In this document: one piece after another, positions 5,914 through 36,382 of the stretch
Position numbering within the stretch: position 1 is the stretch's first letter
Layout: every line of letters starts with the position of its first letter
Virus record (IMG/VR): IMGVR_UViG_3300037466_002047
DNA from: an uncultured virus (IMG/VR IMGVR_UViG_3300037466_002047)
Taxonomy: Duplodnaviria > Heunggongvirae > Uroviricota > Caudoviricetes
Length of the DNA stretch: 36,382 nucleotides
Strand: one strand, 5' to 3'
Position numbers and translations under genes: made by a program
The notes under the pieces: model-generated
Database searches by the model: none
Told to the model about the DNA's origin: nothing
The model's input: only the letters and a program-made list of their open reading frames with translations

Positions 5914-6858
5914 TCAGAGTTTCCGGAAGAACGTGCCGAGCACGGTGCGCTGCACGTTGTTGTGCGCGATGTCGCCGCCTGCGGTATCGATCGTGATGCC
6001 TGTCTCGGCAGTTTCGCTCGCGACGTTCACGTTCGAGCCTGGACCGGTAAGGCCGACGTTGCCGCCGCCGCCGAGTTGAGTCAGCGAACCAAATTGGGTG
6101 ACATGGGGATGGCCAGGGTCGTGCAGGGTGTGAGGGTGTTTCGCCAGTTCCGAGACTGTGAGCTGGTGTGTCGTCTCACCGATCAGCGAGCCGGCCGCCG
6201 TCACCGTTCCGAGTATCAGCGGGACGTTCGCAAGCCTGCCGGCCGCGCTGTTGCCCATGTCGTCCAGGCCGCCCGGCACATAGCCGCGCTTGTCTGGAAG
6301 CGTGATTTGCTTATTGGCCGCCCAGTCTGCCGCCGCGTTCGCACCGCGGCCGCCCACGACCGGACAGATAGAATCCGAGTATGTCGTCCAGAGGAAAGTA
6401 AACAGCGCCTCACAATCTGCGTTCGCTCGCTCGCTTGCGCCCGATGTTGCAGAGCCAATCGTGCGGCCGTTGTCCCTCACCCATCCGGCGCGTGTGCCGG
6501 ACTGATCGAGCCACATCAGGTCGCCGGTCTGGAATATGGTGGTGCTATCGACGGTCGAGCCCCCACCCGAGCCGGAGGATGGTCCCAGAATCTGCGTTGA
6601 CGTGGAGGAAATCTGCACCACGCCGCTCTTGTCGGTCAGGACGAACTTGATATTACCGTCCGCGAGCCAGAATTCCGGTACTCGACCCGATGAGTCCAGA
6701 ATGATAGGATTGGGATGTGGGAGCGTTAACGCCGTGTCCTTATAGGCATTTTGGGGCGTTGTGGTCGCAGCCTGGAAGAAGGAAAGCCTGCCGCCTGACA
6801 ACGGCTTTCCCGTGTTGTCGAATTGCTGCGAGAGGCTGAGGTTGATTGTGCCGCTCAT
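5914..6858 (-). CDS. Tail protein with a head-binding-like N-terminus and a tail-collar-like C-terminus
   Basis: FDNTGKPLSGGRLSFF...NPIILDSSGR N-terminus; GWVRDNGRTIG, LPDKRG, GETTHQLTVSEL and HNNVQ collar motifs. Confidence 0.8.
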   Translation of the reverse strand: MSGTINLSLSQQFDNTGKPLSGGRLSFFQAATTTPQNAYKDTALTLPHPNPIILDSSGRVPEFWLADGNIKFVLTDKSGVVQISSTSTQILGPSSGSGGGSTVDSTTIFQTGDLMWLDQSGTRAGWVRDNGRTIGSATSGASERANADCEALFTFLWTTYSDSICPVVGGRGANAAADWAANKQITLPDKRGYVPGGLDDMGNSAAGRLANVPLILGTVTAAGSLIGETTHQLTVSELAKHPHTLHDPGHPHVTQFGSLTQLGGGGNVGLTGPGSNVNVASETAETGITIDTAGGDIAHNNVQRTVLGTFFRKL

Positions 6859-7367
6859 TATGAGGCCCTCGCGAAGCTACCGAAATATCTTTGAGCCGCC
6901 TCGTAGTAGGCCGCGCTTGCATCGTCGCCGGACCCGTATGTTCCTAGTGATATCGAACGACCATGAACCTCAATCTCTGCTCGCCATCTGTCGCCTCGCT
7001 TGCGCACCCCTTTGAATCCGCTTGTATTGGTTTTAGGGGTCTTACGATTGGCACCGTTCTGATGTGCAGAAGCCAAGCGCAAGTTGGATAGTCGGTTGTT
7101 GAGTCTGTCCCCATCCGCATGATCGATCTGCCCAGAGGGCACTACACCGTAGGCAAAAAGCCAAATCAGACGATGCACGAGATATTGGTGTCCATAAATT
7201 TTGGTTCCCAAATAGCCGCCAGACACAACGGTTCCGGCCTTCTGGCCAGCCGCCACCTTAGGAGACATACGCCTGCGCCATCTCAGCACTCCAGTTGATG
7301 GCTCGTAGTCGAATAAGGCCCTTAACTCGGCCTGGGAAATCGGGTATATTTTTTTCATGCCGGCCAT
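6858..7367 (-). CDS. HNH homing endonuclease with C-terminal AP2 domain
   Basis: HRLIW...IDHADGDRLNNRLSNLR followed by NTSGFKGV...WRAEI...LGTY. Confidence 0.92.
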   Translation of the reverse strand: MAGMKKIYPISQAELRALFDYEPSTGVLRWRRRMSPKVAAGQKAGTVVSGGYLGTKIYGHQYLVHRLIWLFAYGVVPSGQIDHADGDRLNNRLSNLRLASAHQNGANRKTPKTNTSGFKGVRKRGDRWRAEIEVHGRSISLGTYGSGDDASAAYYEAAQRYFGSFARAS

Positions 7368-24133: not shown

Positions 24134-24379
24134 TCAGATCATCCCGAGTGCGTGCATGTAGGTTTCAAGGACGGATTCTTCCGCGCGCCGCTTTTCATCG
24201 TCCTGCGAACGCATTCGGACAATCGCGCGGAGGGCCTTCACGTCGAAGCCGTTGCTCTTAGCTTCGGCGTACACATCGCGAATGTCGGATACCGTCGCCT
24301 TCTTCTCCTCCTCAAGCCGTTCGACGCGCTCCACAATCGACTTGAGTTGTTCGCGGCTGTTGTTTCCAATTTCAGTCAT
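24134..24379 (-). CDS. gapR: GapR-like nucleoid-associated protein (DUF2312)
   Basis: QLKSIVERVERLEEEKK...IRDVYAEAKSNGFDVKALRAIVRMR...LETYMHALGM; GGAGG RBS. Confidence 0.92.
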   Translation of the reverse strand: MTEIGNNSREQLKSIVERVERLEEEKKATVSDIRDVYAEAKSNGFDVKALRAIVRMRSQDDEKRRAEESVLETYMHALGMI

Positions 24380-25031
24380 GTGACCTCCGATTCCTTCCCT
24401 TGAGTTCACCCTTTGGAAATTCGCGATAGACCGCCAGCGCCTCGTTGACCCATTGAAGGAGCGTCGCGTCTGCCGGCAGTTTGGCGCGCACGGCATCCTC
24501 GACCGGCTTCATCTTGCGCAGGGCGTGCAGGACAGTCGTATGGTCCCTGCCGGCGAAGTGTCGTCCGATGCTGGGAAGGCTTTCGAGGGTCAGCGCCTTA
24601 CACAGCATCATGCAGAGCTGACGCGGGACAACGATGTCAGGTGTGCGGCGATGTGAGAGCAGGTCAAGCCGCCGAACGCCTGAGACAGCGCAAAAAACGG
24701 ACTGAACTTCCCTGATCGGGATGCCCTTTTTCTCGACCGCGGCAGCGCGCGTGTCGTTTTGATAGGTGACGATAAGCGTGCTGCGAATTTCGGCTAGACG
24801 GTCCTCCAGGCTTTTCTCTGGTGGCTCCGCCAGATGCTTCGCGCGCTCCTTGCGCTCTTTTTCACGGAGGGCCTTAGCCATGGGGCCGTCAACGCCGAAT
24901 GTCGGACGCTGAATGCTGATACCGCGATCTGGCACCGCGCGCGCTCCTAGCCTGCGCAGCCGTTCCATGCGCTCCCTATGCGCCTGGATTTGCATCGGCG
25001 ACTGATATTCAATGGCTTCCACGTAGCTCAT
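24372..25031 (-). CDS. Protein with a DnaA C-terminal (domain IV) DNA-binding domain
   Basis: RRTPDIVVPRQLCMMLCK...SLPSIGRHFAGRDHTTVLHALRK signature; no AAA+ domain. Confidence 0.88.
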   Translation of the reverse strand: MSYVEAIEYQSPMQIQAHRERMERLRRLGARAVPDRGISIQRPTFGVDGPMAKALREKERKERAKHLAEPPEKSLEDRLAEIRSTLIVTYQNDTRAAAVEKKGIPIREVQSVFCAVSGVRRLDLLSHRRTPDIVVPRQLCMMLCKALTLESLPSIGRHFAGRDHTTVLHALRKMKPVEDAVRAKLPADATLLQWVNEALAVYREFPKGELKGRNRRSHD

Positions 25032-26616: not shown

Positions 26617-27096
26617 CTATTCCGTCATTGCGTATTGGCCGGAGTTCGCCAGACGCGGTGAAGGATCAACAATTTTGAATCCAGCAATCGAGCGCACGTG
26701 CTCGCGCGTCTTGTGGCCGCCCGAATTGCCGTCATGCACAAACCAGAGCTTGCCCTTGATGTGGCGTAGCAAAACCATGACGTGATGATTGCGAGCTGCG
26801 ACCATGTGCGGCCCAGGTTTCGCGCGCGGGAATTTGCGCAGCCAATTTGCGGCAAGATTCAGATCGGGGAATATCCTGCCAAACAGGAATAGCGATGCCT
26901 CGCAGCCGCAGAAAGCGTGCGGGCATCCTTCCGGCCGACCGTCGACAACCTCATTTCCACTCGCGTCGGGAACGAAACGATGTGCATGCGCTTTGTGATG
27001 CAGGAGAGGTTTGGCCTGCGAGCCTGCGCAGCCGAAAAGACTGACGCCAACCGCCAGTGCAAGGCCGATCAGGAATTGCTTGCGATGTGGGGTCAC
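26617..27096 (-). CDS. Exported CHAP-like Cys/His protein
   Basis: Signal peptide, FCGCEAS...HHVMV...HDGNSG; GTG start overlaps the upstream stop. Confidence 0.6.
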   Translation of the reverse strand: MTPHRKQFLIGLALAVGVSLFGCAGSQAKPLLHHKAHAHRFVPDASGNEVVDGRPEGCPHAFCGCEASLFLFGRIFPDLNLAANWLRKFPRAKPGPHMVAARNHHVMVLLRHIKGKLWFVHDGNSGGHKTREHVRSIAGFKIVDPSPRLANSGQYAMTE

Positions 27097-27287
27097 TTTG
27101 TCTGCGCCTCCTCGTCCTTGAGGCACATTGCGGCTCCTGCCGCGAACAGAAGCGATGTTGCTAGGATGACGGCGCTGGACTGGGCCCAGCGCCAATCGCC
27201 TGTCCAAATTCCCACAAGAGTTGCCGCCACTAAGGCGAACAAAGAGATCACGACGGCGCTCATGCAGGATGAGTAAAACTCTCTCAA
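27093..27287 (-). CDS. Two-TM small membrane protein
   Basis: Two hydrophobic segments. Confidence 0.55.
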   Translation of the reverse strand: MREFYSSCMSAVVISLFALVAATLVGIWTGDWRWAQSSAVILATSLLFAAGAAMCLKDEEAQTK

Positions 27288-27434
27288 GCCGCCTCTCCCA
27301 TTCTCATGCTGTGCTTACTGATGGTGCGGGCCTGTCTCCGCAGCGAGAATAGTCCCCGGCTTTCTCCCACCCGTGCCGGGAACGGGGTGATAGCCCACAG
27401 CGCGGGTGATGCGGGGCACGCCGTGGGAGGAAGC

Positions 27435-28791: not shown

Positions 28792-29142
28792 ATGGCGCAA
28801 CGCAAAACGAGAGCCGATCAGATCCATCGCGGGAAAACGCCGACCCGGCGTCACTTCCTGCCGGAATGGGCCGTCGCGCGCGGATTGAGCCAGGCAGACA
28901 TTTCCAGAGAGCTGGAAGTCGAGAAATCGACCGTTTCCCGCTGGTTCGGCGGCGTCATCCCCGACGATCGAAACCTAGACCGGCTGGTCGGCCTGCTGCA
29001 CATTGAAGTGCTGGACCTGTTCCGGCATCCCGACGAGGACTGGCTGGCCAAGTTCTTCCGGGGCCGGGATGAGAAGGAGCGCGAACGGATCAAAGCGACG
29101 CTGGAAACGGCGTTTCCGCGCCGAAGCGGCACGGAGGGGTAG
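28792..29142 (+). CDS. CI-like XRE-family repressor without a peptidase domain
   Basis: GLSQADISRELEVEKSTVSRWFGG HTH; divergent from cro; 116 aa. Confidence 0.85.
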   Translation: MAQRKTRADQIHRGKTPTRRHFLPEWAVARGLSQADISRELEVEKSTVSRWFGGVIPDDRNLDRLVGLLHIEVLDLFRHPDEDWLAKFFRGRDEKERERIKATLETAFPRRSGTEG

Positions 29143-29143
29143 T

Positions 29144-29392
29144 TTGGGCTGCCCCGTCCTGAAAATCGCGTCAGTGACATTCCTATTGGCGCTGGGCGGC
29201 CCGTCCTTGGCTCTGGACCGCCCTTCCCCTCCTCGGCCCACTTGGCACAAGGCTGGTGCCAATATCGAAGATTTCCAACGCGCCCGCGCCGGGTGCTTTG
29301 CCTCCGCGTCGGCCTACGCCGAGATGACCGACACCCGATGGACTATGATATTCATCGGCTGTATGCGCGCGAGCGGTTGGACCTACCGCTAA
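29144..29392 (+). CDS. Small exported protein downstream of the repressor
   Basis: GGAGGG RBS with TTG start; signal-like N-terminus; C...CMRASGW motif. Confidence 0.6.
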   Translation: MGCPVLKIASVTFLLALGGPSLALDRPSPPRPTWHKAGANIEDFQRARAGCFASASAYAEMTDTRWTMIFIGCMRASGWTYR

Positions 29393-29443
29393 TCTCTCAC
29401 AGTTAAGCCTTTCGACTGACAGCGGAATTATTGCGCTCGAAAA

Positions 29444-29500
29444 ATAGTTGCGTTTTTAGCCACTGACCCTATTGACCATTGTTGCGTTTTGCGCAACTAT
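29444..29500 (+). promoter_or_regulatory. PL-like promoter with two operator copies
   Basis: ATAGTTGCGTTTTTAGCCACT and ATTGTTGCGTTTTGCGCAACTAT match the PR operator; TTGACC-N17-AACTAT. Confidence 0.7.
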
Positions 29501-29549
29501 CCTTCCCACATTCGATGACGCCCCGAGCGGGCAAGTGGGAGAGACGGAA

Positions 29550-29723
29550 ATGGCCACCTGGAAACAAAACCCCGATCTGATGGATCGCCTCGCCACCGCG
29601 CAGAACCATCCGGCCAACGTCAATCAAGACATCATGACCTTCGCTGGCTTCTGCGACAGCCGCGAAGAACTTGAACGTCACGTCCTCCACTACGAAGCGC
29701 GCGCAAACAAAGCCGCGGCGTGA
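29550..29723 (+). CDS. Hypothetical protein, first gene of the left operon
   Basis: GGAGAG RBS; ATG at 29550. Confidence 0.65.
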   Translation: MATWKQNPDLMDRLATAQNHPANVNQDIMTFAGFCDSREELERHVLHYEARANKAAA

Positions 29724-29747
29724 GCCGCGAGTGGACATAACGCCGCT

Positions 29748-29897
29748 ATGAAACCGTGCCCGCGAAAGTGCGCTGATTGCGAAGGCGACGATCATCACTG
29801 GATGGTCGATTGCGACGACGAAACCGGCGAGCCTGTCGTTATCTGCAAGCACTGTGACGCCACGCGCGAATTTCAAGACGGAGATTTAGAGCCGTGA
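29748..29897 (+). CDS. 49-aa zinc-finger-like protein
   Basis: CADC...HHW...CKHC; GTGA overlap with the next gene. Confidence 0.55.
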   Translation: MKPCPRKCADCEGDDHHWMVDCDDETGEPVVICKHCDATREFQDGDLEP

Positions 29898-30142
29898 CCA
29901 ACCGCGAGTTCTCGTTTCCAGGCCAAGTCTACGAACCCGACTTACCGAGCCGTGGCGTCAGCAACGCCATGCGCCACTTCGATGCCGGGCTGCGCATCCG
30001 CCGGCTAGAAGAAGCCCTGCGCGAGATCAAGGCGCACATGGGGGCCTGCATCATCCAGCGGGCACCATCCGACGACGCGGTTATCTTCGACCACATCACG
30101 GCAGCCGAACGGCTCGCGTCAGACATTCTAAAATCCGAGTAG
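29894..30142 (+). CDS. Hypothetical protein
   Basis: Coupled ORF. Confidence 0.6.
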   Translation: MTNREFSFPGQVYEPDLPSRGVSNAMRHFDAGLRIRRLEEALREIKAHMGACIIQRAPSDDAVIFDHITAAERLASDILKSE

Positions 30143-30179
30143 CAAAATGCCCCGAGCGGGCGGGAATGGGGAGATGAGG

Positions 30180-30557
30180 ATGACTAGTCTCGCTTCTACC
30201 CGGGCATCTTCCATCAGTACGAACCGCTCTCAGGTGGGAGAGCACACGCCGGGGCCTTGGCAGGTTGGCGACGGACAAGGCAACGGTCATCGCGATTACA
30301 TCTATTGCGACGACGCGACGGGCTCCGCAGTCGCTACGGTCGAATTGCAATATGCCCCGCGCAATCCATTAGAGCAGCAAGCCAACGCGCGCCTAATCGC
30401 CGCCGCCCCCGACATGCTCGCGGCACTGAAAAAGCACGAGCGCGTCCTTTCCATGCGAACGACTTACGGCGCGAAGGCCAAGCCCACAGTCCAAGAACTT
30501 AACGACATGCTTGACGACTTCCGCGCCGCCATCGCCAAGGCCACAGCCGAACGTTGA
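30180..30557 (+). CDS. Phage accessory protein (HTPGPW...ANARLIAAAPD type)
   Basis: Recurrent phage motif pair; GGGGAG RBS. Confidence 0.75.
   Translation: MTSLASTRASSISTNRSQVGEHTPGPWQVGDGQGNGHRDYIYCDDATGSAVATVELQYAPRNPLEQQANARLIAAAPDMLAALKKHERVLSMRTTYGAKAKPTVQELNDMLDDFRAAIAKATAER
30182..30219 (+). repeat. Cassette left motif, copy A
   Basis: GACTAGTCTCGC-N13-TCTTCCATCAGTA. Confidence 0.75.
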
Positions 30558-30566
30558 CCGATGCTG
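30535..30566 (+). repeat. Cassette right motif, copy A
   Basis: CCAAGGCCACAGCCGAACGTTGACCGATGCTG. Confidence 0.75.
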
Positions 30567-30590
30567 ACTTTCAAAATGGGAGGGGATCAC

Positions 30591-30938
30591 ATGAACAAGC
30601 CAATCACCCTCGAACAAATGGCACAGCGCGATTTGGAACGCGCACTCCAGCACGCGAAAATCTGGGACGACATCTTCTCCAAGCTGTTCGATCCAAAGCC
30701 CGGGCCAGTCGTCAAGGCCCCTCCCCGCATCTCCATCCATGTCATGGGCGGCAGAGAGATCGCACACAACATCTACTGCGCAGACGGCGTGAACGCCCGC
30801 AACCAATGGGGATGGATTGTCGATCACGTCAAAGAGCACTTCGGCTGCGATGCGGATGACGTGGAGTGCATCGAATGCCCAGAGGGGGACATGATCGCGG
30901 TGTGCGGGAAGATTTGCGCATACGTGGAGATCGAGTGA
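30591..30938 (+). CDS. Hypothetical protein
   Basis: GGAGGGG RBS; Cys-containing C-terminus. Confidence 0.65.
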   Translation: MNKPITLEQMAQRDLERALQHAKIWDDIFSKLFDPKPGPVVKAPPRISIHVMGGREIAHNIYCADGVNARNQWGWIVDHVKEHFGCDADDVECIECPEGDMIAVCGKICAYVEIE

Positions 30939-31294
30939 TGGGCTTCAACACCGTCTTGGTCCTCCTTAACGATACTGTTGATTACGGCGCGAAGGACTCG
31001 CAAATCGGACAGCGCATCCTTGACGCGGTGCGCGCTTATCCGGCCCGTGATCGGGACAGGGGAAGGCTTGATATTTTCGCTCGTCCGGATGCTGGCGGCG
31101 GCGCTTCCTATGGCTCTGTCATTTCGCAGGCCCACGCCGACTATTCTCAGATTGTTGTCGTCGGCAGGAACTACGGTCGTCCTCTGCACGAATGCGCAGA
31201 TCTTGATTGGTACGCCGTAGATCAACTCAAGACGGCTCTTGAGAAGAACGGCTACCGCGTCACCAAACGGCGCAAGCCAAAGGAGGCCGCATGA
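30938..31294 (+). CDS. Hypothetical protein
   Basis: TGATG coupling; MGFNTVLVLLND start. Confidence 0.7.
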   Translation: MGFNTVLVLLNDTVDYGAKDSQIGQRILDAVRAYPARDRDRGRLDIFARPDAGGGASYGSVISQAHADYSQIVVVGRNYGRPLHECADLDWYAVDQLKTALEKNGYRVTKRRKPKEAA

Positions 31295-31393
31295 CCTCTC
31301 GCCCCTCCACCTACCTTCCCGAAGCTGTCGCCACAGTATCAGTTGCGTTGCTCCTTGCGTGCGGAATCGCTTGGCACTCAATCGGAGACGCAA

Positions 31394-31510
31394 ATGCTCG
31401 GATCGCTGATCGCAGTAGCAGTAGCGTTGGCGTTCATTGGGTTTCTGTTCTGGATTGTGCTGCGGATCGCGTTCAACGGCGTGCCTCTCGCTGAGAGGGA
31501 ATCGCAATGA
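31394..31510 (+). CDS. 38-aa single-TM peptide
   Basis: GGAG RBS; MLGSLIAVAVALAFIGFLFWIVLRIAFNG... Confidence 0.5.
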   Translation: MLGSLIAVAVALAFIGFLFWIVLRIAFNGVPLAERESQ

Positions 31511-31671
31511 CGCGCCGCGAGGAGATCGTGGTGTTGCAGGCCGAATATGCGCTGATGATGAACAAGCGCAAGTTCGCAGAAGCATCACGGGTATTCGGCC
31601 GGTTGAAGTCGCTAATGATGAGAGAGCTGAACGACGAAACGAAAACCAGTGGGAGCGTAGCAAGTGCTTAG
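31507..31671 (+). CDS. 54-aa hypothetical protein
   Basis: ATGA overlap; MTRREEIVVLQAEY... Confidence 0.5.
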   Translation: MTRREEIVVLQAEYALMMNKRKFAEASRVFGRLKSLMMRELNDETKTSGSVASA

Positions 31672-32452
31672 TCCGACACAGATTGCACAGAGAGACGGAA
31701 AGCTCACGGCGAGCCGCGTTGCTTGTTTGATGACCGGCGATGCCGAGAAAATCCTTAACCTCTGGCGCGAATTGACCGGCGACCCGTCTTTTGTGCCAGA
31801 GGACTTGTCAGACGTTTGGGCCGTGCAGCTCGGTTCCCATACCGAGGTTCTAAACCTTGATTGGTACGAGCGCCGCACGGGCAAGCCGGTTTCCCGGCGC
31901 GGCGATGTCGTCGTTCATCCGAACGATTGGGCGGCTTGCACGCTGGACGGTTGGGACGACGATTTGAACGCGCCTATCGAGTGCAAACACGTTGGCGGCT
32001 TTGAAAAGACGAGCGCGATCCTAGAGCGGTACGCGCCGCAAGCCCACTGGCAAATGATGATGACTGGAGCGGACAAGTGCATCTTTTCGCTCATCGAAGG
32101 CGCGCGAGAGCCGATTATCGAGATCGTCCCCTACGACCCGGCATATGCGGAGGAACTCTGGAAGCGCGCGGAATCCTTCATGCGCTGCGTCTTTGATCTG
32201 ACACCGCCGGTCGCGCTCGCGCCCATCGCTGCCCCAGTGAAGGCAGAGAAGATTTACGACATGACCGGGCAAAACGAGTGGGCCAGTGAAGCCGTGACTT
32301 GGCTGACGACTCGGCAGGCTCGCAAGGACAACGAAGCCGCCGACAAGGCGATCAAGAAACTCATTCCACCCGACGCGGCCAAATGCTTCGGACACGGCAT
32401 CCAAGTGTCCCGCAGCAAGGCCGGATCACTCAGCATCAGGGAGCTTGCGTAA
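31664..32452 (+). CDS. YqaJ / lambda-exonuclease-family recombination nuclease
   Basis: RDGKLTASRV, GSHTE, CTLDG, IECK and YAPQAHWQM motifs. Confidence 0.9.
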   Translation: MLSPTQIAQRDGKLTASRVACLMTGDAEKILNLWRELTGDPSFVPEDLSDVWAVQLGSHTEVLNLDWYERRTGKPVSRRGDVVVHPNDWAACTLDGWDDDLNAPIECKHVGGFEKTSAILERYAPQAHWQMMMTGADKCIFSLIEGAREPIIEIVPYDPAYAEELWKRAESFMRCVFDLTPPVALAPIAAPVKAEKIYDMTGQNEWASEAVTWLTTRQARKDNEAADKAIKKLIPPDAAKCFGHGIQVSRSKAGSLSIRELA

Positions 32453-32453
32453 T

Positions 32454-33137
32454 ATGCAGTCCGAACAGGTCAATGATCTATATGCCGCCTTGGCCAAGGC
32501 GCAGGCCAAAATTGAGAACGCAAAGCTGAACAAGGTCAATCCGCATTTCCGGTCCAAATATGCGGACCTGGCGGCCATCATCGACGCTACGCGCAAGCCG
32601 CTGGCTGAGCAGGGATTGTCTATCATTCAGACGAGCGAAGTTCGCGAAGGCAGCATGGTTCTGATTACCACGCTCGCGCATTCGTCGGGCCAATGGATTC
32701 GCAGCGAATACCCACTCCCTGTCGGGAAGCCGCAGGAAATGGGAAGTGCTCGCACCTATGCCCGCCGCTACGAGTGGAGCTCTATTACCGGCATCGCGGC
32801 CGATGAGGACGACGACGCCAACGCCGCACAAGCGAGCGGGCAGAAGATCGAGCCGACAAAGGTTGCCCCGCGCAAGGTGGAAGCCCCGATCAGCCCAGAC
32901 GGAGAGGTTTCCCCGCATGCGATCGCCTATGACGGCAACGCAATCGACTGGGGAGCACGTTACGTCGCGGCGCTGAAAGCGTCCTATCTCCCGACCGATC
33001 TCGCGGAATGGTCTTCTGCCAACCAAGCCACGTTGAGACAGATCAAAGACGAAGCCCCGAAGGTGTTTGCGCGTATCGAGGCGGCGGCAAAAGGCCGCCT
33101 GAACGAACTCACGCAAACACTGGAAGCGGCTGAATGA
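32454..33137 (+). CDS. erf: ERF-family single-strand annealing protein
   Basis: ALAKAQ...NPHFRSKYADL...HSSGQW...GSARTYARRY...DDDAN. Confidence 0.93.
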   Translation: MQSEQVNDLYAALAKAQAKIENAKLNKVNPHFRSKYADLAAIIDATRKPLAEQGLSIIQTSEVREGSMVLITTLAHSSGQWIRSEYPLPVGKPQEMGSARTYARRYEWSSITGIAADEDDDANAAQASGQKIEPTKVAPRKVEAPISPDGEVSPHAIAYDGNAIDWGARYVAALKASYLPTDLAEWSSANQATLRQIKDEAPKVFARIEAAAKGRLNELTQTLEAAE

Positions 33138-33463
33138 TCGTCAACGACGACAAGGCTGAAATCGCGCTGAGCTACCTCAACATGGACCCTCATCCGTTGG
33201 CTCTTGCGCGCAAGGACGTGACGGACGCGGAGAACAAGGCGCGGCAAGCCTATGCCCGCGCCTTCCTCGGCGCAGAGGGCTCGGTCGAGGCGCGAAAAGC
33301 TATGGCGGAAGTCTCATCGGAATACATGGCCGCGAAGAACGACGAGTCTCACGCCGCGCTGGAATTTGAGCGGCATCGCGCCCGCGTCAAAGGAGCGGAA
33401 ATGCTCCTGGAGATTTGGCGCAGCGAGCAGGCCAACGTGAGAGCTGCGGAGAGGGTTAGGTGA
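33134..33463 (+). CDS. Helical hypothetical protein of the recombination module
   Basis: Coupled ORF ending IWRSEQANVR. Confidence 0.75.
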   Translation: MIVNDDKAEIALSYLNMDPHPLALARKDVTDAENKARQAYARAFLGAEGSVEARKAMAEVSSEYMAAKNDESHAALEFERHRARVKGAEMLLEIWRSEQANVRAAERVR

Positions 33464-33819
33464 GGACGGTCCCCGAATGGATTGGCGCAACGCCAGACAC
33501 GCCCGTTCCAGATCGGGTGCGGGTGCGCGTGTTCGATGCCAAGGGCGGGCGCTGCCACAAGTGCAAGCGCAAGATCATGGCCGGCGAGCGGTGGACCTGC
33601 GAGCACGTTCAAGCCCTCATCAACAAGGGCGAGAATCGCGAGCGGAATCTCGACGTGACCTGCGATTGGTGCCTGCCGGTCAAGAACGCTGAGGACGTTG
33701 CGATCAAGTCCAGGAACTACCGCGTTCGCAAGGCACATCTTGGGGTGAAGAAGAAGCGCACCATTACCCGCTGGCGTCGCATGAACGGGGAGCCAGTCTA
33801 CGCGAACAGAGAACGATGA
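33460..33819 (+). CDS. HNH endonuclease-like protein
   Basis: CHKC...EHVQALINKG...NL..TCDWC. Confidence 0.85.
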   Translation: MRTVPEWIGATPDTPVPDRVRVRVFDAKGGRCHKCKRKIMAGERWTCEHVQALINKGENRERNLDVTCDWCLPVKNAEDVAIKSRNYRVRKAHLGVKKKRTITRWRRMNGEPVYANRER

Positions 33820-33836
33820 CGCACACAGATTTGGAA

Positions 33837-33881
33837 GACTAGTCACGCTGCGGAGCGTCGTTCTTCCATCAGTAAGAGAGG
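33837..33881 (+). repeat. Cassette left motif, copy B
   Basis: GACTAGTCACGC-N13-TCTTCCATCAGTA-AGAGAGG. Confidence 0.75.
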
Positions 33882-33888
33882 CCCTTAA

Positions 33889-34122
33889 ATGCCGGTCATG
33901 ACCGCCGTGTTCGACGTTTCAGACGAAGTTTGGAAGCGCAACCCGTTCGACATTGAGACGCCGTTCGGGAAGGCCGTTACCATCGCCCTAGGCGATTTGG
34001 CAGACCAAAACGACACGCTCAAGCAGGCCGTTGTCGGAATCAACATCGCCTTAGTGCGAGACGAAAATCCAGACGCGGCCGCACGCCTCGCAATTGAGGT
34101 CCGCGATGAACTCCAATTCTGA
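33889..34122 (+). CDS. Hypothetical accessory protein
   Basis: GAGG RBS supplied by the left motif. Confidence 0.7.
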   Translation: MPVMTAVFDVSDEVWKRNPFDIETPFGKAVTIALGDLADQNDTLKQAVVGINIALVRDENPDAAARLAIEVRDELQF

Positions 34123-34125
34123 CTC

Positions 34126-34189
34126 CCATGGCACCTCCGACCGTTGACCGATGCTGCCTCTCCCACGCGCTCCGGGTTGCATGAATTAA
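34126..34189 (+). repeat. Cassette right motif, copy B, with tail
   Basis: CCATGGCACCTCCGACCGTTGACCGATGCTG then CCTCTCCC..CGCTCCG..CATGAATTAA. Confidence 0.75.
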
Positions 34190-34193
34190 AATA

Positions 34194-34239
34194 GACTATT
34201 CCCGCCCTACATCTAGGATTCTTCCTTCGGTAAGAGAGG
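34194..34239 (+). repeat. Cassette left motif, copy C
   Basis: GACTATTCCCGC-N14-TCTTCCTTCGGTA-AGAGAGG. Confidence 0.7.
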
Positions 34240-34246
34240 ATAGAGA

Positions 34247-34483
34247 ATGGCGATCATCAATGCACACGGGAACCCGCATCGGCGCTTAGTCTATGCGTGG
34301 GAAGGTGAGATTGAGGCGCTACAGGCCGAAAACGCACGGCTACGGGCCGCTCTCACGCAATTCGTCGCCGCATGTGACACGGCCCCTCCCGTTTCTCTAA
34401 TGACGGAAATCGCGATGGCCCGCAAAGCGGCGGGTGAAGCCCTTGGCTTGGAGACCAAGGCACGCCCGAACGATGACCGATGA
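34247..34483 (+). CDS. Hypothetical accessory protein
   Basis: RBS from the left motif; EIEALQAENARLRAAL coiled coil. Confidence 0.7.
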   Translation: MAIINAHGNPHRRLVYAWEGEIEALQAENARLRAALTQFVAACDTAPPVSLMTEIAMARKAAGEALGLETKARPNDDR

Positions 34484-34516
34484 CCCTCTCCCGTCCGCTC
34501 CGCCCTCATGAATTAA
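34455..34516 (+). repeat. Cassette right motif, copy C, with tail
   Basis: CCAAGGCACGCCCGAACGATGACCGATG then CCTCTCCC..CGCTCCG..CATGAATTAA. Confidence 0.7.
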
Positions 34517-34519
34517 CCC

Positions 34520-34726
34520 ATGACCTCCCGCGTTCCAGCAACTCAAGCATCCATCAAGCGGCACATAGAGGCCGCTAGAAAGGCAGGCCTGACCGTCATC
34601 GGCATCAGGCCGGATGGAACCGTGCTTGTGAGCGACGGGGAAAATCCCGTCCTGGAGGCTTTACGTGACGACGTAACCCGGCATGATCCCGAGGCAGAAA
34701 AGTGGGCCATTCGCGAGCGCGCCTAG
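34520..34726 (+). CDS. Small integrase-associated protein, possible excisionase/RDF
   Basis: TQASIKRHIEAARKAG..IRPDGTV; immediately upstream of int. Confidence 0.55.
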   Translation: MTSRVPATQASIKRHIEAARKAGLTVIGIRPDGTVLVSDGENPVLEALRDDVTRHDPEAEKWAIRERA

Positions 34727-35826
34727 TGGACGTTGACCTGCCTTATTTGAGCGCGGAAAAATCCCGCCACGGGAAGGCGCGGCTCTATGTCCGCAAGAAC
34801 GGCCGGCGGATTCTGGTCAAATCGCCCAAAGGAAGCCCAGGATTCGCGCGGGAGTACGCAGCGGCTATCGAGGCCCTCGACAAGCTGAAAACGCAGCCAG
34901 TGAAGCCCCTGCCGTCCCTGCCCGCCCCGAAAAGCTTGGGCGCGCTGGCAATGCAGTATTTCGCCTCCTCCGAGTTTCGCGGCCTCGACGCGACCATGCA
35001 AAAGCGCCGCAGGTCGGTCATCGAGGAGTGCCTACGGGAAAAGCTCAACGACGACGCCCCCGAGGTATTCCGTGATTGCCCCTATGCCGTCATGGGGCCG
35101 GAGCACATCAGGCGGTTGCGTGACCTAAAAGCGGCAGAGATCGGAAAAAACGGCAAGGAAAAGGCAGGCGCGGCCAACAACCGACGCAAGTACCTGTCCT
35201 CCATGTTCGGGTGGGCTATCGAGGTCGGCAAGGCTCGTGCGAATCCCTGCCGGGAAGTTCGCAGGGTAAAATACGCCTCAGAGGGCTTCCATACTTGGAC
35301 GCTAGCTGAGGTCCGCAAGTTCACGGCGAAATGGCCGATTGGGACCAAGCCCCGTTTGGCGCTCGAACTCCTGCTCCTGACTGGCGCGCGCCGCGGCGAT
35401 ATGGTCACGCTTGGCCGCCAGCACGTCGAAGACGGCTGGATTCGGTACGTCCCGCAGAAAACACGCTACAAGCGCATGGAGCCGACCTATAAGCCGCTCC
35501 TGCCGCAACTCGCGGAAGTCATCGCGCAAAGCCCATGCGGCGATCTGACGTTTCTTGTCACGAGCTTCGGCAAGCCGTTCACGCCAGCCGGGTTCTCGAA
35601 CTGGTTTCGCGAGCGATGCAATGAGGCTGGCTTACCGCACTGTTCAGCGCATGGGCTGCGCAAGGCCGGGGCGACGATCGCGGCCGAATCCGGGGCGACG
35701 GAACAGCAGCTTATGGCGATATTCGACTGGACGACGCCTGCGCAGGCGGCGGTCTATACGAGGAAGGCAAACCGGAAAAAGCTGGCCGGCGGCGGGATGA
35801 AGCTGCTCGCCAGTGGATCGGACTGA
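34726..35826 (+). CDS. int: Tyrosine integrase
   Basis: LLTGARRGD (R), HGLRK (HxxR) and VYTR (Y); start GTG 34726 or 34702. Confidence 0.95.
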   Translation: MDVDLPYLSAEKSRHGKARLYVRKNGRRILVKSPKGSPGFAREYAAAIEALDKLKTQPVKPLPSLPAPKSLGALAMQYFASSEFRGLDATMQKRRRSVIEECLREKLNDDAPEVFRDCPYAVMGPEHIRRLRDLKAAEIGKNGKEKAGAANNRRKYLSSMFGWAIEVGKARANPCREVRRVKYASEGFHTWTLAEVRKFTAKWPIGTKPRLALELLLLTGARRGDMVTLGRQHVEDGWIRYVPQKTRYKRMEPTYKPLLPQLAEVIAQSPCGDLTFLVTSFGKPFTPAGFSNWFRERCNEAGLPHCSAHGLRKAGATIAAESGATEQQLMAIFDWTTPAQAAVYTRKANRKKLAGGGMKLLASGSD

Positions 35827-35836
35827 GAACGGATTT

Positions 35837-36017
35837 TGTCGCACCTTGGGCGCGGGTGACTGTCGCACCCACAAAAACCCAAATAAAATCAGTCTCTTGG
35901 AAATGTGGTGGCGGGAGCGACGGGGCTGCAAGTCCATGTCCCCGCCTAGACTTAGCTCTGTCGCACATGAACGTGAGACCGACGAAAACCCTTTGCATCC
36001 AGTTGGCATTGTCGCAC
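35837..36017. other. attP-like site: tRNA 3'-end core with arm repeats and an IHF-like site
   Basis: Core 35909-35927 reads AGCCCCGTCGCTCCCGCCA on the minus strand (tRNA-Asp-like 3' end); TGTCGCAC at 35837, 35861, 35959 and 36010; AATCAGTCTCTTG at 35887. Confidence 0.8.
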
Positions 36018-36030
36018 CTGGGGGCGCTCC

Positions 36031-36276
36031 TTATCGAGAAACGGGTGCGGACGAATTACGCAGCGCCGGGTGCAATCCGTCCTCGCTCTCAGAGCGGAAC
36101 ACTTCCAATCCGGCCGCGTCGAATGCTTTGGCGACTTGATCTTTCGGAAGAACGTCGGTTACCTGACCGCCGAACCGCGAGACGATGCAATAGGTGTCGT
36201 GAACCTGCACGACCTTCACGCTCTCATAGCCGCCGAAGTATCGCGTCGTGACCCGTTGGCCTTCGCTCACGTCCAT
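36031..36276 (-). CDS. Hypothetical protein (81 aa)
   Basis: GAGGA RBS; ATG at 36276. Confidence 0.6.
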   Translation of the reverse strand: MDVSEGQRVTTRYFGGYESVKVVQVHDTYCIVSRFGGQVTDVLPKDQVAKAFDAAGLEVFRSESEDGLHPALRNSSAPVSR

Positions 36277-36286
36277 AAAATTTTCC

Positions 36287-36382
36287 TCACCTGATACCGG
36301 GTTGGTGAACAATGTGCCGGTTAATCTCCGCGATCCGGCGTTTTGCATCGTCGCTCAGTTGCCAGTCGTAGAGACTGCCGGA
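36287..36382 (-). CDS. 3' end of a gene truncated by the window edge
   Basis: Open frame SGSLYDWQLSDDAKRRIAEINRHIVHQPGIR*. Confidence 0.45.
   Translation of the reverse strand, partial: SGSLYDWQLSDDAKRRIAEINRHIVHQPGIR

Follow-up and report, generated by a model that had tools for sequence, protein, structure and literature searches.

The window analysed here, a stretch of 36,382 nucleotides from an uncultured virus (IMG/VR record IMGVR_UViG_3300037466_002047), is the genome of a temperate P22-like phage that contains three small genes, each of them enclosed by a left and a right copy of the same two short DNA motifs. An earlier note, made from the letters of the window alone, had proposed that these genes form a phage gene-cassette system. 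The left motif is bipartite, GACTAKTCNCGC-N13/14-TCTTCCWTCRGTA, and its two parts are termed box 1 and box 2; the right motif is the 17-mer CCGAMCGWTGACCGATG. The three genes and the places that they occupy (slots) are denoted A, B and C, a further left copy on the minus strand defines slot E, and the gene behind slot C is denoted D. The junctions and their cargo are the following (ORF, open reading frame; SD, Shine-Dalgarno sequence; E values from nhmmer).

30149..30242, plus strand: left junction A, with the 13-nt repeat GCCCCGAGCGGGC, an SD, the ATG at 30180, box 1 (30182-30193), box 2 (30207-30219) and GGGAGAG; E 2.4e-18
30243..30532, plus strand: cargo-specific part of gene A (ORF 30180-30557, phrog_1273)
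30533..30590, plus strand: right junction A, with the coding tail, the core GAACGTTGACCGATG (TGA at 30555, ATG at 30561) and, ahead of the gene that starts with the ATG at 30591, a strong SD; E 1.5e-18
33827..33888, plus strand: left junction B, with box 1 at 33837, box 2 at 33862 and the SD AGAGAGG, untranslated; E 1.7e-19
33889..34122, plus strand: cargo B, 77 amino acids, no known family
34123..34246, plus strand: right-left junction B-C, with the right core (34137-34153), a CTCTCCC tract, CATGAATTAA at 34180, box 1 at 34194, box 2 at 34220 and an SD
34247..34483, plus strand: cargo C, 78 amino acids, no known family
34455..34519, plus strand: right junction C, with the core (34466-34482), a CTCTCCC tract and CATGAATTAA at 34507, followed by the ATG of the next gene; E 9.9e-16
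34520..34726, plus strand: gene D, which precedes the integrase gene
27294..27354, minus strand: left motif copy E, GACTATTCTCGCTGCGG...CCATCAGTAAG, inside the 3' end of a 402-amino-acid early-right gene; E 0.0016
27093..27287, minus strand: cargo E, a hydrophobic ORF of 64 amino acids

The left motif matches the plus strand exactly at 30182-30219, 33837-33874 and 34194-34232, whereas 100 dinucleotide shuffles gave no match at all. It is the combination of the two boxes that is distinctive, and neither box alone: with up to two mismatches, box 1 has 21 matches (20.8 expected) and box 2 has three (1.66 expected; 26 of 100 shuffles reach three), neither of which is significant. The right motif occurs without a mismatch at 30547, 34137 and 34466, which remain its sole matches even when three mismatches are allowed (0.59 expected; one of 100 shuffles reaches three). 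The two motifs of the earlier note and their pairing at three slots were thus confirmed, as were the exact 15-bp repeat CGTTGACCGATGCTG (30551 and 34141, about 3.6 kb apart) and the enclosed ORFs (30180-30557, 33889-34122 and 34247-34483), the products of which have no significant similarity to one another (best pair A/C, blastp E 0.07).

The strict left pattern retrieved a single relative from IMG/VR, G001 (IMGVR_UViG_3300037312_000640; 44,216 bp, direct terminal repeats, rated complete), which has three left copies on its plus strand and three right copies in the same order as the window. Two nhmmer profiles, one based on the six left copies of both genomes and the other on the six right copies, recovered every input copy at E values of 1e-16 to 1e-20, and revealed a fourth left copy in the window (27354-27294, minus strand), with an exact match to box 1, and its ortholog in G001 (31267-31205, E 0.00053). 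This copy has no right partner, and therefore the pairing of left and right motifs is not obligatory. The 5' end of gene D was considered as a degenerate fifth left motif, which is plausible by eye, but it did not match the nhmmer profile.

Conservation of the left motif is block-wise. In all eight copies of the two genomes, box 1 can be written as GACTA.TC.CGC, with 10 of 12 columns invariant, and box 2 as CC.TC.GTA.G, with 8 of 11 columns invariant, while none of the 18 columns of the spacer is invariant (the chance of such a gap has an analytic upper bound of p 4e-6). The general form of the left half is GACTAKTCNCGC, about 18 variable bases, CCWTCRGTA, an SD, which is either AGAGAGG or GGGAGAG, and lastly the variable gene's start. 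In slots B and C, AGAGAGG lies 7 nt ahead of the ATG, so that the left motif indeed supplies the ribosome-binding site as originally suggested, whereas GGGAGAG(G) precedes the cargo in slots A and E and in slot B of G001. Copy E is followed by GGGAGAGG and by a TTG start codon that overlaps the stop codon of the 402-amino-acid gene. The motif is untranslated in B and C, it is part of a translated leader of 21 codons in A, and in E it lies within the 3' end of another gene, with the two boxes in different frames. Its persistence across these three contexts points to a constraint on the nucleic acid and not on a peptide, in agreement with the earlier note.

A free spacer between two invariant blocks also speaks for the possibility that the variable early genes are controlled by a sequence-specific protein or RNA for which the boxes are binding sites, be it a translational operator beside the SD, a transcription factor site, or a signal for RNA processing or stability; mosaic breakpoints at the motifs would then be a by-product, viable recombinants being those joined at gene ends. 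The persistence of the motif in coding, untranslated and upstream-gene sequence fits such a role, and so does the distance from box 2 to the start codon, which is a constant 14 nt in B and C. Furthermore, box 1 forms an 8-bp palindrome containing CTAG, a tetranucleotide that is avoided in both genomes (window, 35 observed versus 133 expected; G001, 42 versus 164) and yet is present once in each left motif of the plus strand. Cluster K mycobacteriophages provide a precedent with their start-associated sequences (SAS) and extended SAS (ESAS), repeats that lie upstream of start codons (Pope et al. 2011, PMC3203893). As described there, the SAS shares with the left motif that it is a conserved repeat just upstream of starts, in one orientation, with a second element after a variable spacer, and its function is, like that of the boxes, unassigned, though thought to be related to expression. 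There is, however, no sequence relation, the ESAS is a 17-bp inverted repeat, and no 3' partner motif features in that account; moreover, the SAS (13 bp) stays with gene families, whereas here there are four copies, the downstream gene changes, and the motif of slot A lies within a reading frame.

The tests for regulatory signals were negative. A scan of 29000-36382 with a sigma-70-type consensus gave two promoter-like sites (1.8 expected), at 29416 and 34733, neither of them in a motif, and no motif carries an intrinsic terminator-like site on the plus strand. RNA folds of five junction stretches are not better than those of shuffled sequences (z between -0.41 and +2.09), Rfam yielded no match at E values up to 1, and no tRNAs were found. 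A pairing of CCUCUC (after the right core) with GAGAGG (of the next slot), which would mask the SD, appeared in one centroid fold only, in a stretch that folds worse than 199 of 200 shuffles, and was dismissed. No candidate for the reader of the boxes was found, the integrases of the two phages differ, and the motifs are not the immunity operators, because the operator regions of the two phages differ as well. A regulatory role would, in addition, leave the swapping of every motif-marked slot, described below, unexplained. Taken together, regulation by a reader of the boxes is possible but unlikely.

In the six copies of the two genomes, the right motif can be written as GA.CG.TGACCGATG, with 13 of 15 columns invariant. 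The right half of the junction sequence, GAMCGWTGACCGATG, provides a stop codon that is followed after three nucleotides by an ATG (stop-CCG-ATG). The earlier note had placed the stop codons of genes A and C inside the right motif; this is true for gene A, which ends with the TGA of the motif, while gene C ends with a TGA 7 nt further on that overlaps the ATG of the motif as ATGA. Gene B stops 22 nt ahead of the motif. In slot A, the ATG of the right core is in frame with the next gene; in slot B, it opens a frame of 13 codons that is ended by the TAA of CATGAATTAA. Such an arrangement of stop and start codons would be the usual sign of close translational coupling. Use of the shared TGA as the stop codon of four of the six cargo ORFs was also considered as a signal, and dropped as not significant (chance expectation 1/3). 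In slots B and C, the right motif is extended through the C-rich tract CTCTCCC to CATGAATTAA, and the region between genes B and C (34123-34246) represents one complete right-left junction, to which the other copies are half-junctions. The proposed inverted relation of the left and right cores holds for a single 7-mer (CWTCRGT versus its complement ACYGAWG) and extends no further.

Evidence on the role of the motifs comes from the comparison with G001, the one complete relative. The two genomes are highly mosaic: the structural genes have almost no DNA similarity, and homology in the early-left region is patchy and bounded by the motifs. Conserved segments include the following.

30149-30242 and G001 33862-33955: 86% identity, left junction A
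30533-30941 and G001 34192-34597: 85% identity, right junction A and the next gene
33700-33891 and G001 37543-37745: 75% identity, end of the HNH gene and left junction B
34139-34251 and G001 39112-39225: 99.1% identity, junction B-C
34463-34579 and G001 39456-39572: 94.9% identity, right junction C and the start of gene D

All four slots of G001, that is, the three paired slots and the slot that has only a left copy, hold genes unrelated to those of the window, and homology breaks at 30242/30533, 33891/34139, 34251/34463 and 27284/27095, which are the edges of the motifs. In slot A, about 290 bp in the window are replaced by 237 bp in G001 without DNA or protein similarity; in slot B, about 250 bp of the window stand against 1,367 bp of G001 that contain two ORFs; and slot C holds about 212 bp versus 231 bp with an unrelated ORF of 82 amino acids. 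In slot E, the start codon that follows the motif is where homology stops; it is found again from the beginning of a conserved lipoprotein-like gene (27096) onwards, the 64-amino-acid ORF of the window being replaced by about 584 bp of unrelated sequence. The only parts that the cargo proteins have in common in blastp are those encoded by the motifs, namely the 21-residue leader of slot A and the tails AKATAER, AKATGER, KSNSAADR, KSKSAAER and KARPNDDR. Conversely, the junctions are the best-conserved DNA common to both genomes (B-C 99.1% and C-D 94.9%, versus 70-94% elsewhere), left junction B is identical to the slot-B copy of G001 from box 1 to the SD, and overall the junctions of phages of this lineage are 86-100% identical across 50-115 bp while the enclosed genes are unrelated. 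Cargo swaps with breakpoints at the motifs, as predicted in the earlier note for related phages, are thus seen at all three paired slots. Furthermore, the A-left copy of G001 equals B-left over the first 19 bases, of which the A-left copy of the window matches 13; this chimeric copy is an indirect sign of exchange between copies. Gene D is also affected: its first 60 nt (20 codons) are common to both phages and divergence is complete at 34579, a mosaic joint inside a reading frame, behind which G001 encodes an excisionase-like version (phrog_66).

Contigs of four rhizosphere metagenome runs (X1 to X4), aligned to the window, add evidence at the population level. In run X4, the arrangement of G001 occurs at a depth of about 51 and contigs of the window type at a depth of 2-4, and thus the variants co-occur; the joints of the G001 type are 30242>30533, 33888>34139 (with 1,369 letters between) and 34247>34466, with matching sides of 94-109 letters. 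A contig of 1,071 bp from run X2 matches 30553-31404, and further upstream it has a stretch of 42 letters that corresponds to a left motif of the B type as far as 33874; no more than 177 unplaced letters separate this stretch from right junction A. The contig is a third allele in the position of slot A, its left copy being of the B type, and the metagenomes thus add at least one allele to those of the two genomes. Further contigs of X2 and X3 have other flanks, their match to the window either beginning at 30241 or ending at 30541, and the gene A family thus also exists in contexts without motifs; contigs that carry gene A in another context match to 30541 and continue with a similar ending. 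Joints at 30260>30522, 30262>30521 and 30421>30524 in X2 and X3 were disregarded as unreliable, as their sides comprise just 20-21 letters. In the Logan contigs of X1, four of seven breaks lie at motif positions, which is only a hint of branching. Neither empty sites nor circular junctions were seen in the contigs, which cannot reveal rare circles or rare empty sites.

The motifs are confined to a narrow and rare lineage of rhizosphere phages and prophages. In the representative genomes of GTDB (596 Gb), the relaxed left motif has 33 loci with a single hit each in unrelated taxa, none with a right core on either strand, and about as many would arise by chance when some 18 bases are specified; the left motif has no match in JGI metagenome contigs. 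The right 17-mer has 11 loci in IMG/VR, and the G001 locus alone has the remaining motif set; the other ten are lone hits that lack a left box 2 and any right core apart from the match itself, and a lone box-1-like match lies about 1.8 kb away in one of them. The left pattern of the slot E type retrieved only G001 from IMG/VR, and so did the protein encoded after slot A, which has four representatives in a set of 5.8 billion proteins, those of the window and of G001 and two more (70% and 56% identity) on short contigs. The GenBank phage collection gave weak HNH matches only. The idea of a general, self-contained cassette system is not supported by this distribution.

The cargo, by contrast, is found outside the lineage, without the motifs. 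The slot-A cargo of G001 belongs to a family with ten other members in the large protein set, and those outside the lineage have their own N-terminus of the MPKGRHT type with their own start codon, and other C-termini. DNA homologues of this cargo were found in 15 viral or metagenome loci, in which similarity is limited to G001 33965-34192 and none of which has the left or the right motif. Hence the motifs belong to the slot, or the phage lineage, and not to the gene, and the notion that a gene moves together with its ends is not supported. No flank of the capture joints is shared with the other loci. In the window, the match to phrog_1273 is limited to residues 21-124 of gene A. A scan of the cargo proteins with PADLOC and NCBIfam gave nothing significant; the sole listed NCBIfam match, TIGR02501 to the slot-A cargo of G001, is far under the cut-off (E 0.0057, 17 bits versus 38.25).

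Slot A in particular raises the question of whether the motifs could be scars, that is, the ends of an ancestral small gene that was duplicated to several places and the body of which was later replaced by illegitimate recombination within these ends; they would be functionless and look conserved as a result of recent exchange. In this slot, the left motif is translated as a leader, the right motif forms a coding tail that unrelated cargoes have in common (AKATAER and AKATGER), and the gene A contigs from elsewhere, with their match to 30541 and similar ending, indicate that the right junction may partly derive from the gene A family. The two slot-A cargoes have the same CACAC at the point where they meet the leader, as is typical of joins through microhomology. 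Yet neutral remnants should decay evenly instead of leaving two invariant boxes and a free spacer in eight copies, the motif is kept in three distinct coding contexts, and junction B-C is better conserved than any gene common to both phages. Thus, scars are a rather improbable explanation for the set of motifs.

The genes around the slots bear on the question of which enzymes might act at the motifs.

30591-30938, plus strand: gene after slot A, cysteine-rich protein of 115 amino acids, no family
31664-32452, plus strand: YqaJ-type exonuclease
32454-33137, plus strand: ERF annealing protein
33460..33819, plus strand: HNH endonuclease (phrog_333), directly upstream of slot B in both phages
34702..35826, plus strand: tyrosine integrase (PF00589, phrog_1)

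The gene after slot A is one of few early-left genes kept in G001 (84% identity). The recombination module is swapped as a whole: in the window, 31664-33463 encodes YqaJ, ERF and an ORF of 109 amino acids, and in G001 (L054 15868-17306) it is replaced by an AAA_24 protein (Sak4-type, 376 amino acids) and an ORF of 103 amino acids, while the HNH gene is kept downstream (55% identity). Because G001 has the AAA_24 protein, the motifs are not tied to ERF, to which the earlier note had attributed a possible role. Nor are they tied to the integrase, a generic tyrosine recombinase, since the integrases of the two phages are only 27% identical and the sites 95-100%. Among these enzymes, the HNH endonuclease beside slot B is the only one that both phages have in common.

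A dedicated exchange of cassettes, in which genes are excised, inserted or replaced at defined points because the boxes are cut or recombined by a sequence-specific enzyme, could nevertheless use another enzyme, such as the HNH protein next to slot B, a Xer-type recombinase of the host or some unrecognised recombinase, and could resemble integrons or dif modules or proceed through targeted breaks that are repaired from a co-infecting phage. The boxes are sharp and invariant, box 1 is palindromic, the 7-mer CWTCRGT is inverted between the left and right cores, and the HNH gene is adjacent in both phages. The slots have stops inside the right site and starts soon after the left site, as integron cassettes do. 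The likeness to integron cassettes comprises single promoterless genes in one orientation, a conserved site across the junctions, a stop codon in or near the 3' site, and inverted cores of seven bases at both junction ends. However, neither an IntI nor an attC-type hairpin is present, the inverted 7-mer (ACCGATG ... CWTCRGT) does not fit the integron core RYYYAAC/GTTRRRY, and the left part measures more than 40 nt here, instead of 6 nt. Models of integron integrases gave at best 21.9 bits with the integrase (NCBIfam; cut-off 220), and the right-left junction (34120-34250) forms no hairpin as single-stranded DNA on the plus strand (z +1.65) or the minus strand (z +0.56) and is therefore not attC-like. 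These results, together with the divergence of the integrases, argue against site-specific recombination by the integrase, one of the two routes that had originally been envisaged. Further points against dedicated exchange are that left and right sites are alike across seven bases only, that homologues of the cargo elsewhere have no sites, and that the contigs, in which rare forms would be invisible, showed neither empty sites nor circular junctions. The HNH gene sits in the recombination module, as it does in the Bradyrhizobium phage ppBjS10J-1, which has the same ERF-YqaJ-NinB-HNH layout without the motif or comparable repeats. Dedicated cassette exchange is thus highly improbable. A related, very doubtful possibility is that the boxes are the sites of an undescribed mechanism of cassette replacement, in which an enzyme, for example the HNH protein, would break or synapse the DNA and annealing proteins would repair it from a co-infecting relative. 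If it were true, accessory genes would be swapped at defined points and in frame with translation signals that are already in place, and phages would have their own counterpart of integron and dif-module cassettes.

The explanation that we favor is that the motifs are conserved gene-junction linkers that carry translation signals and, in addition, serve as anchors for homologous exchange, with a probability of about 0.55; on this reading, the junctions mark hypervariable slots for accessory genes within a narrow group of P22-like temperate phages and prophages. Homologous recombination inside the nearly identical junctions of two phages would swap the enclosed gene as a translation-ready unit, mediated by the phage's own annealing proteins or by RecA of the host; recombination genes (ERF and YqaJ, or AAA_24, plus HNH) are indeed present in both phages. 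Indirect signs of such recombination are the chimeric A-left copy of G001, the B-type left motif that the X2 contig joins towards right junction A, and the presence of both variants in run X4. New genes would enter a slot rarely, by illegitimate or microhomology joining, and captured genes would then spread through the lineage by means of the junctions. Initiation of translation and translational coupling would be the reason why the boxes are kept.

Several observations weigh against this explanation. The copies within one genome are 63-79% alike, and the exact identity between them extends over no more than 13-15 bp, which makes them a poor substrate for exchange between slots. Homology arms do not need sharp invariant boxes with a free spacer, and these suggest a sequence-specific reader. 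Slot E has no right motif. Two more swaps between the window and G001 (30941-31286 and 31642-33700, the latter with AAA_24 in place of YqaJ and ERF) have no motifs, and hence motifs are not required for mosaicism. Finally, just two complete genomes are known, and no recombination event was seen directly.

The closest known system appears to be the promoter-early stem-loop cassettes (PeSLs) of T4-type phages (Arbiol et al. 2010, PMC2839356; Comeau et al. 2014, PMC4122927). In these accounts, PeSLs are repeated composites of about 100 bp that reach from the upstream stop codon to the SD and start codon of the next gene, as junction B-C (34123-34246) does; they are concentrated at small genes without an assigned function, and the flanked genes are inserted, deleted or replaced between close relatives. 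Their exchange is ascribed to homologous recombination within the repeats, the same process as proposed here. However, PeSLs are defined there by a strong sigma-70 promoter and a terminator stem-loop, number about 50 copies per genome as compared with four left and three right copies, and belong to virulent T4-like myoviruses, whereas the slots lie inside the early operons of a temperate P22-like phage. Because promoter and stem-loop are both absent, as the tests described above showed, the junctions are not members of the PeSL class.

Another related concept is that of short conserved boundary (linker) sequences in the exchange of modules between lambdoid phages, as summarized in PMC3029335. 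According to that summary, short sequences are conserved exactly at the junctions of non-homologous modules, which is also true for the window, and exchange would proceed through general or phage-encoded homologous recombination, as proposed here. The summary also states that such sequences are not recognizable at the majority of mosaic boundaries; in the present case, unlike in that model, a single genome has the same pair at several of its slots, with invariant box-like cores.

Two further comparisons concern the cargo. The internal-protein loci of T-even phages are hypervariable, with unrelated genes that have a conserved 5' leader for targeting to the capsid and are exchanged via conserved flanks. 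Slot A, with its conserved coding leader and swapped alleles, resembles these loci. In contrast to them, the left motif lies outside the reading frame of the cargo in B, C and E, and the conserved element is thus not a peptide signal. The cargo genes also differ from morons, which have their own promoter and terminator; neither is present at the flanks, and the genes are co-oriented members of early operons.

The slots are embedded in the following general arrangement of the phage genome.

Minus strand: structural genes (terminase, portal, scaffold, P22-type coat, head-closure, tail)
Minus strand: early-right operon (HTH regulator, DnaA-C-type HTH protein, GapR-like protein, methyltransferase, replication initiator)
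About 29470 to 35826, plus strand: early-left operon (small ORFs, gene A, YqaJ exonuclease, ERF, HNH endonuclease, genes B, C and D, tyrosine integrase)

The coat protein has at most 40% identity to that of any GenBank phage. A protein of the window itself is recorded on a contig of 98,382 bp, and therefore the phage is probably an integrated prophage. The host of the lineage is probably an alphaproteobacterium; the GapR-type domain encoded in the window fits such a host, as GapR is not known outside this class. The gene for this GapR-like DNA-binding domain protein (PF10073, E 7e-31) adjoins that for the DnaA C-terminal HTH protein (PF08299, E 2e-22) in the early-right operon (24134-25031, minus strand), and as the two ORFs overlap by about 125 nt, one start codon is probably located further downstream. 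A second HNH endonuclease gene (6858-7367, minus strand; phrog_99, E 1e-60) lies among the tail genes.

Upstream of slot A, the region 29416-29500 contains the promoter-like site CTGACA-18-AAAAAT and, behind it, a 21-nt repeat (ATWGTTGCGTTTT...) that occurs twice, at 29444 and 29478, and probably represents the early-left promoter with the immunity operators. G001 carries another palindrome here, from which heteroimmunity between the two phages is to be expected. Its early-left promoter region leads directly into slot A. In the window, the 13-nt direct repeat GCCCCGAGCGGGC at 29520-29532 and 30149-30161 encloses about 616 bp of small ORFs that are absent from G001, a difference that looks like an insertion or deletion via microhomology; the block itself also starts with GTGGGAGAG ahead of an ATG.

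The idea that phages trade modules via short linkers is old, and its best-worked case, the PeSLs, concerns promoters and terminators in virulent T4-like phages. Here, a small set of sharp junction sequences without promoter or terminator is found in a temperate P22-like lineage. The lineage is rare and uncultured, and the mechanism is one that we infer. Nevertheless, four slots with defined boxes offer a compact system for asking whether conserved junctions direct the exchange of genes and what keeps the boxes invariant. Accessory slots tend to host genes for anti-defence and for takeover of the host, and the junctions could serve as handles with which new accessory genes may be fished from metagenomes.

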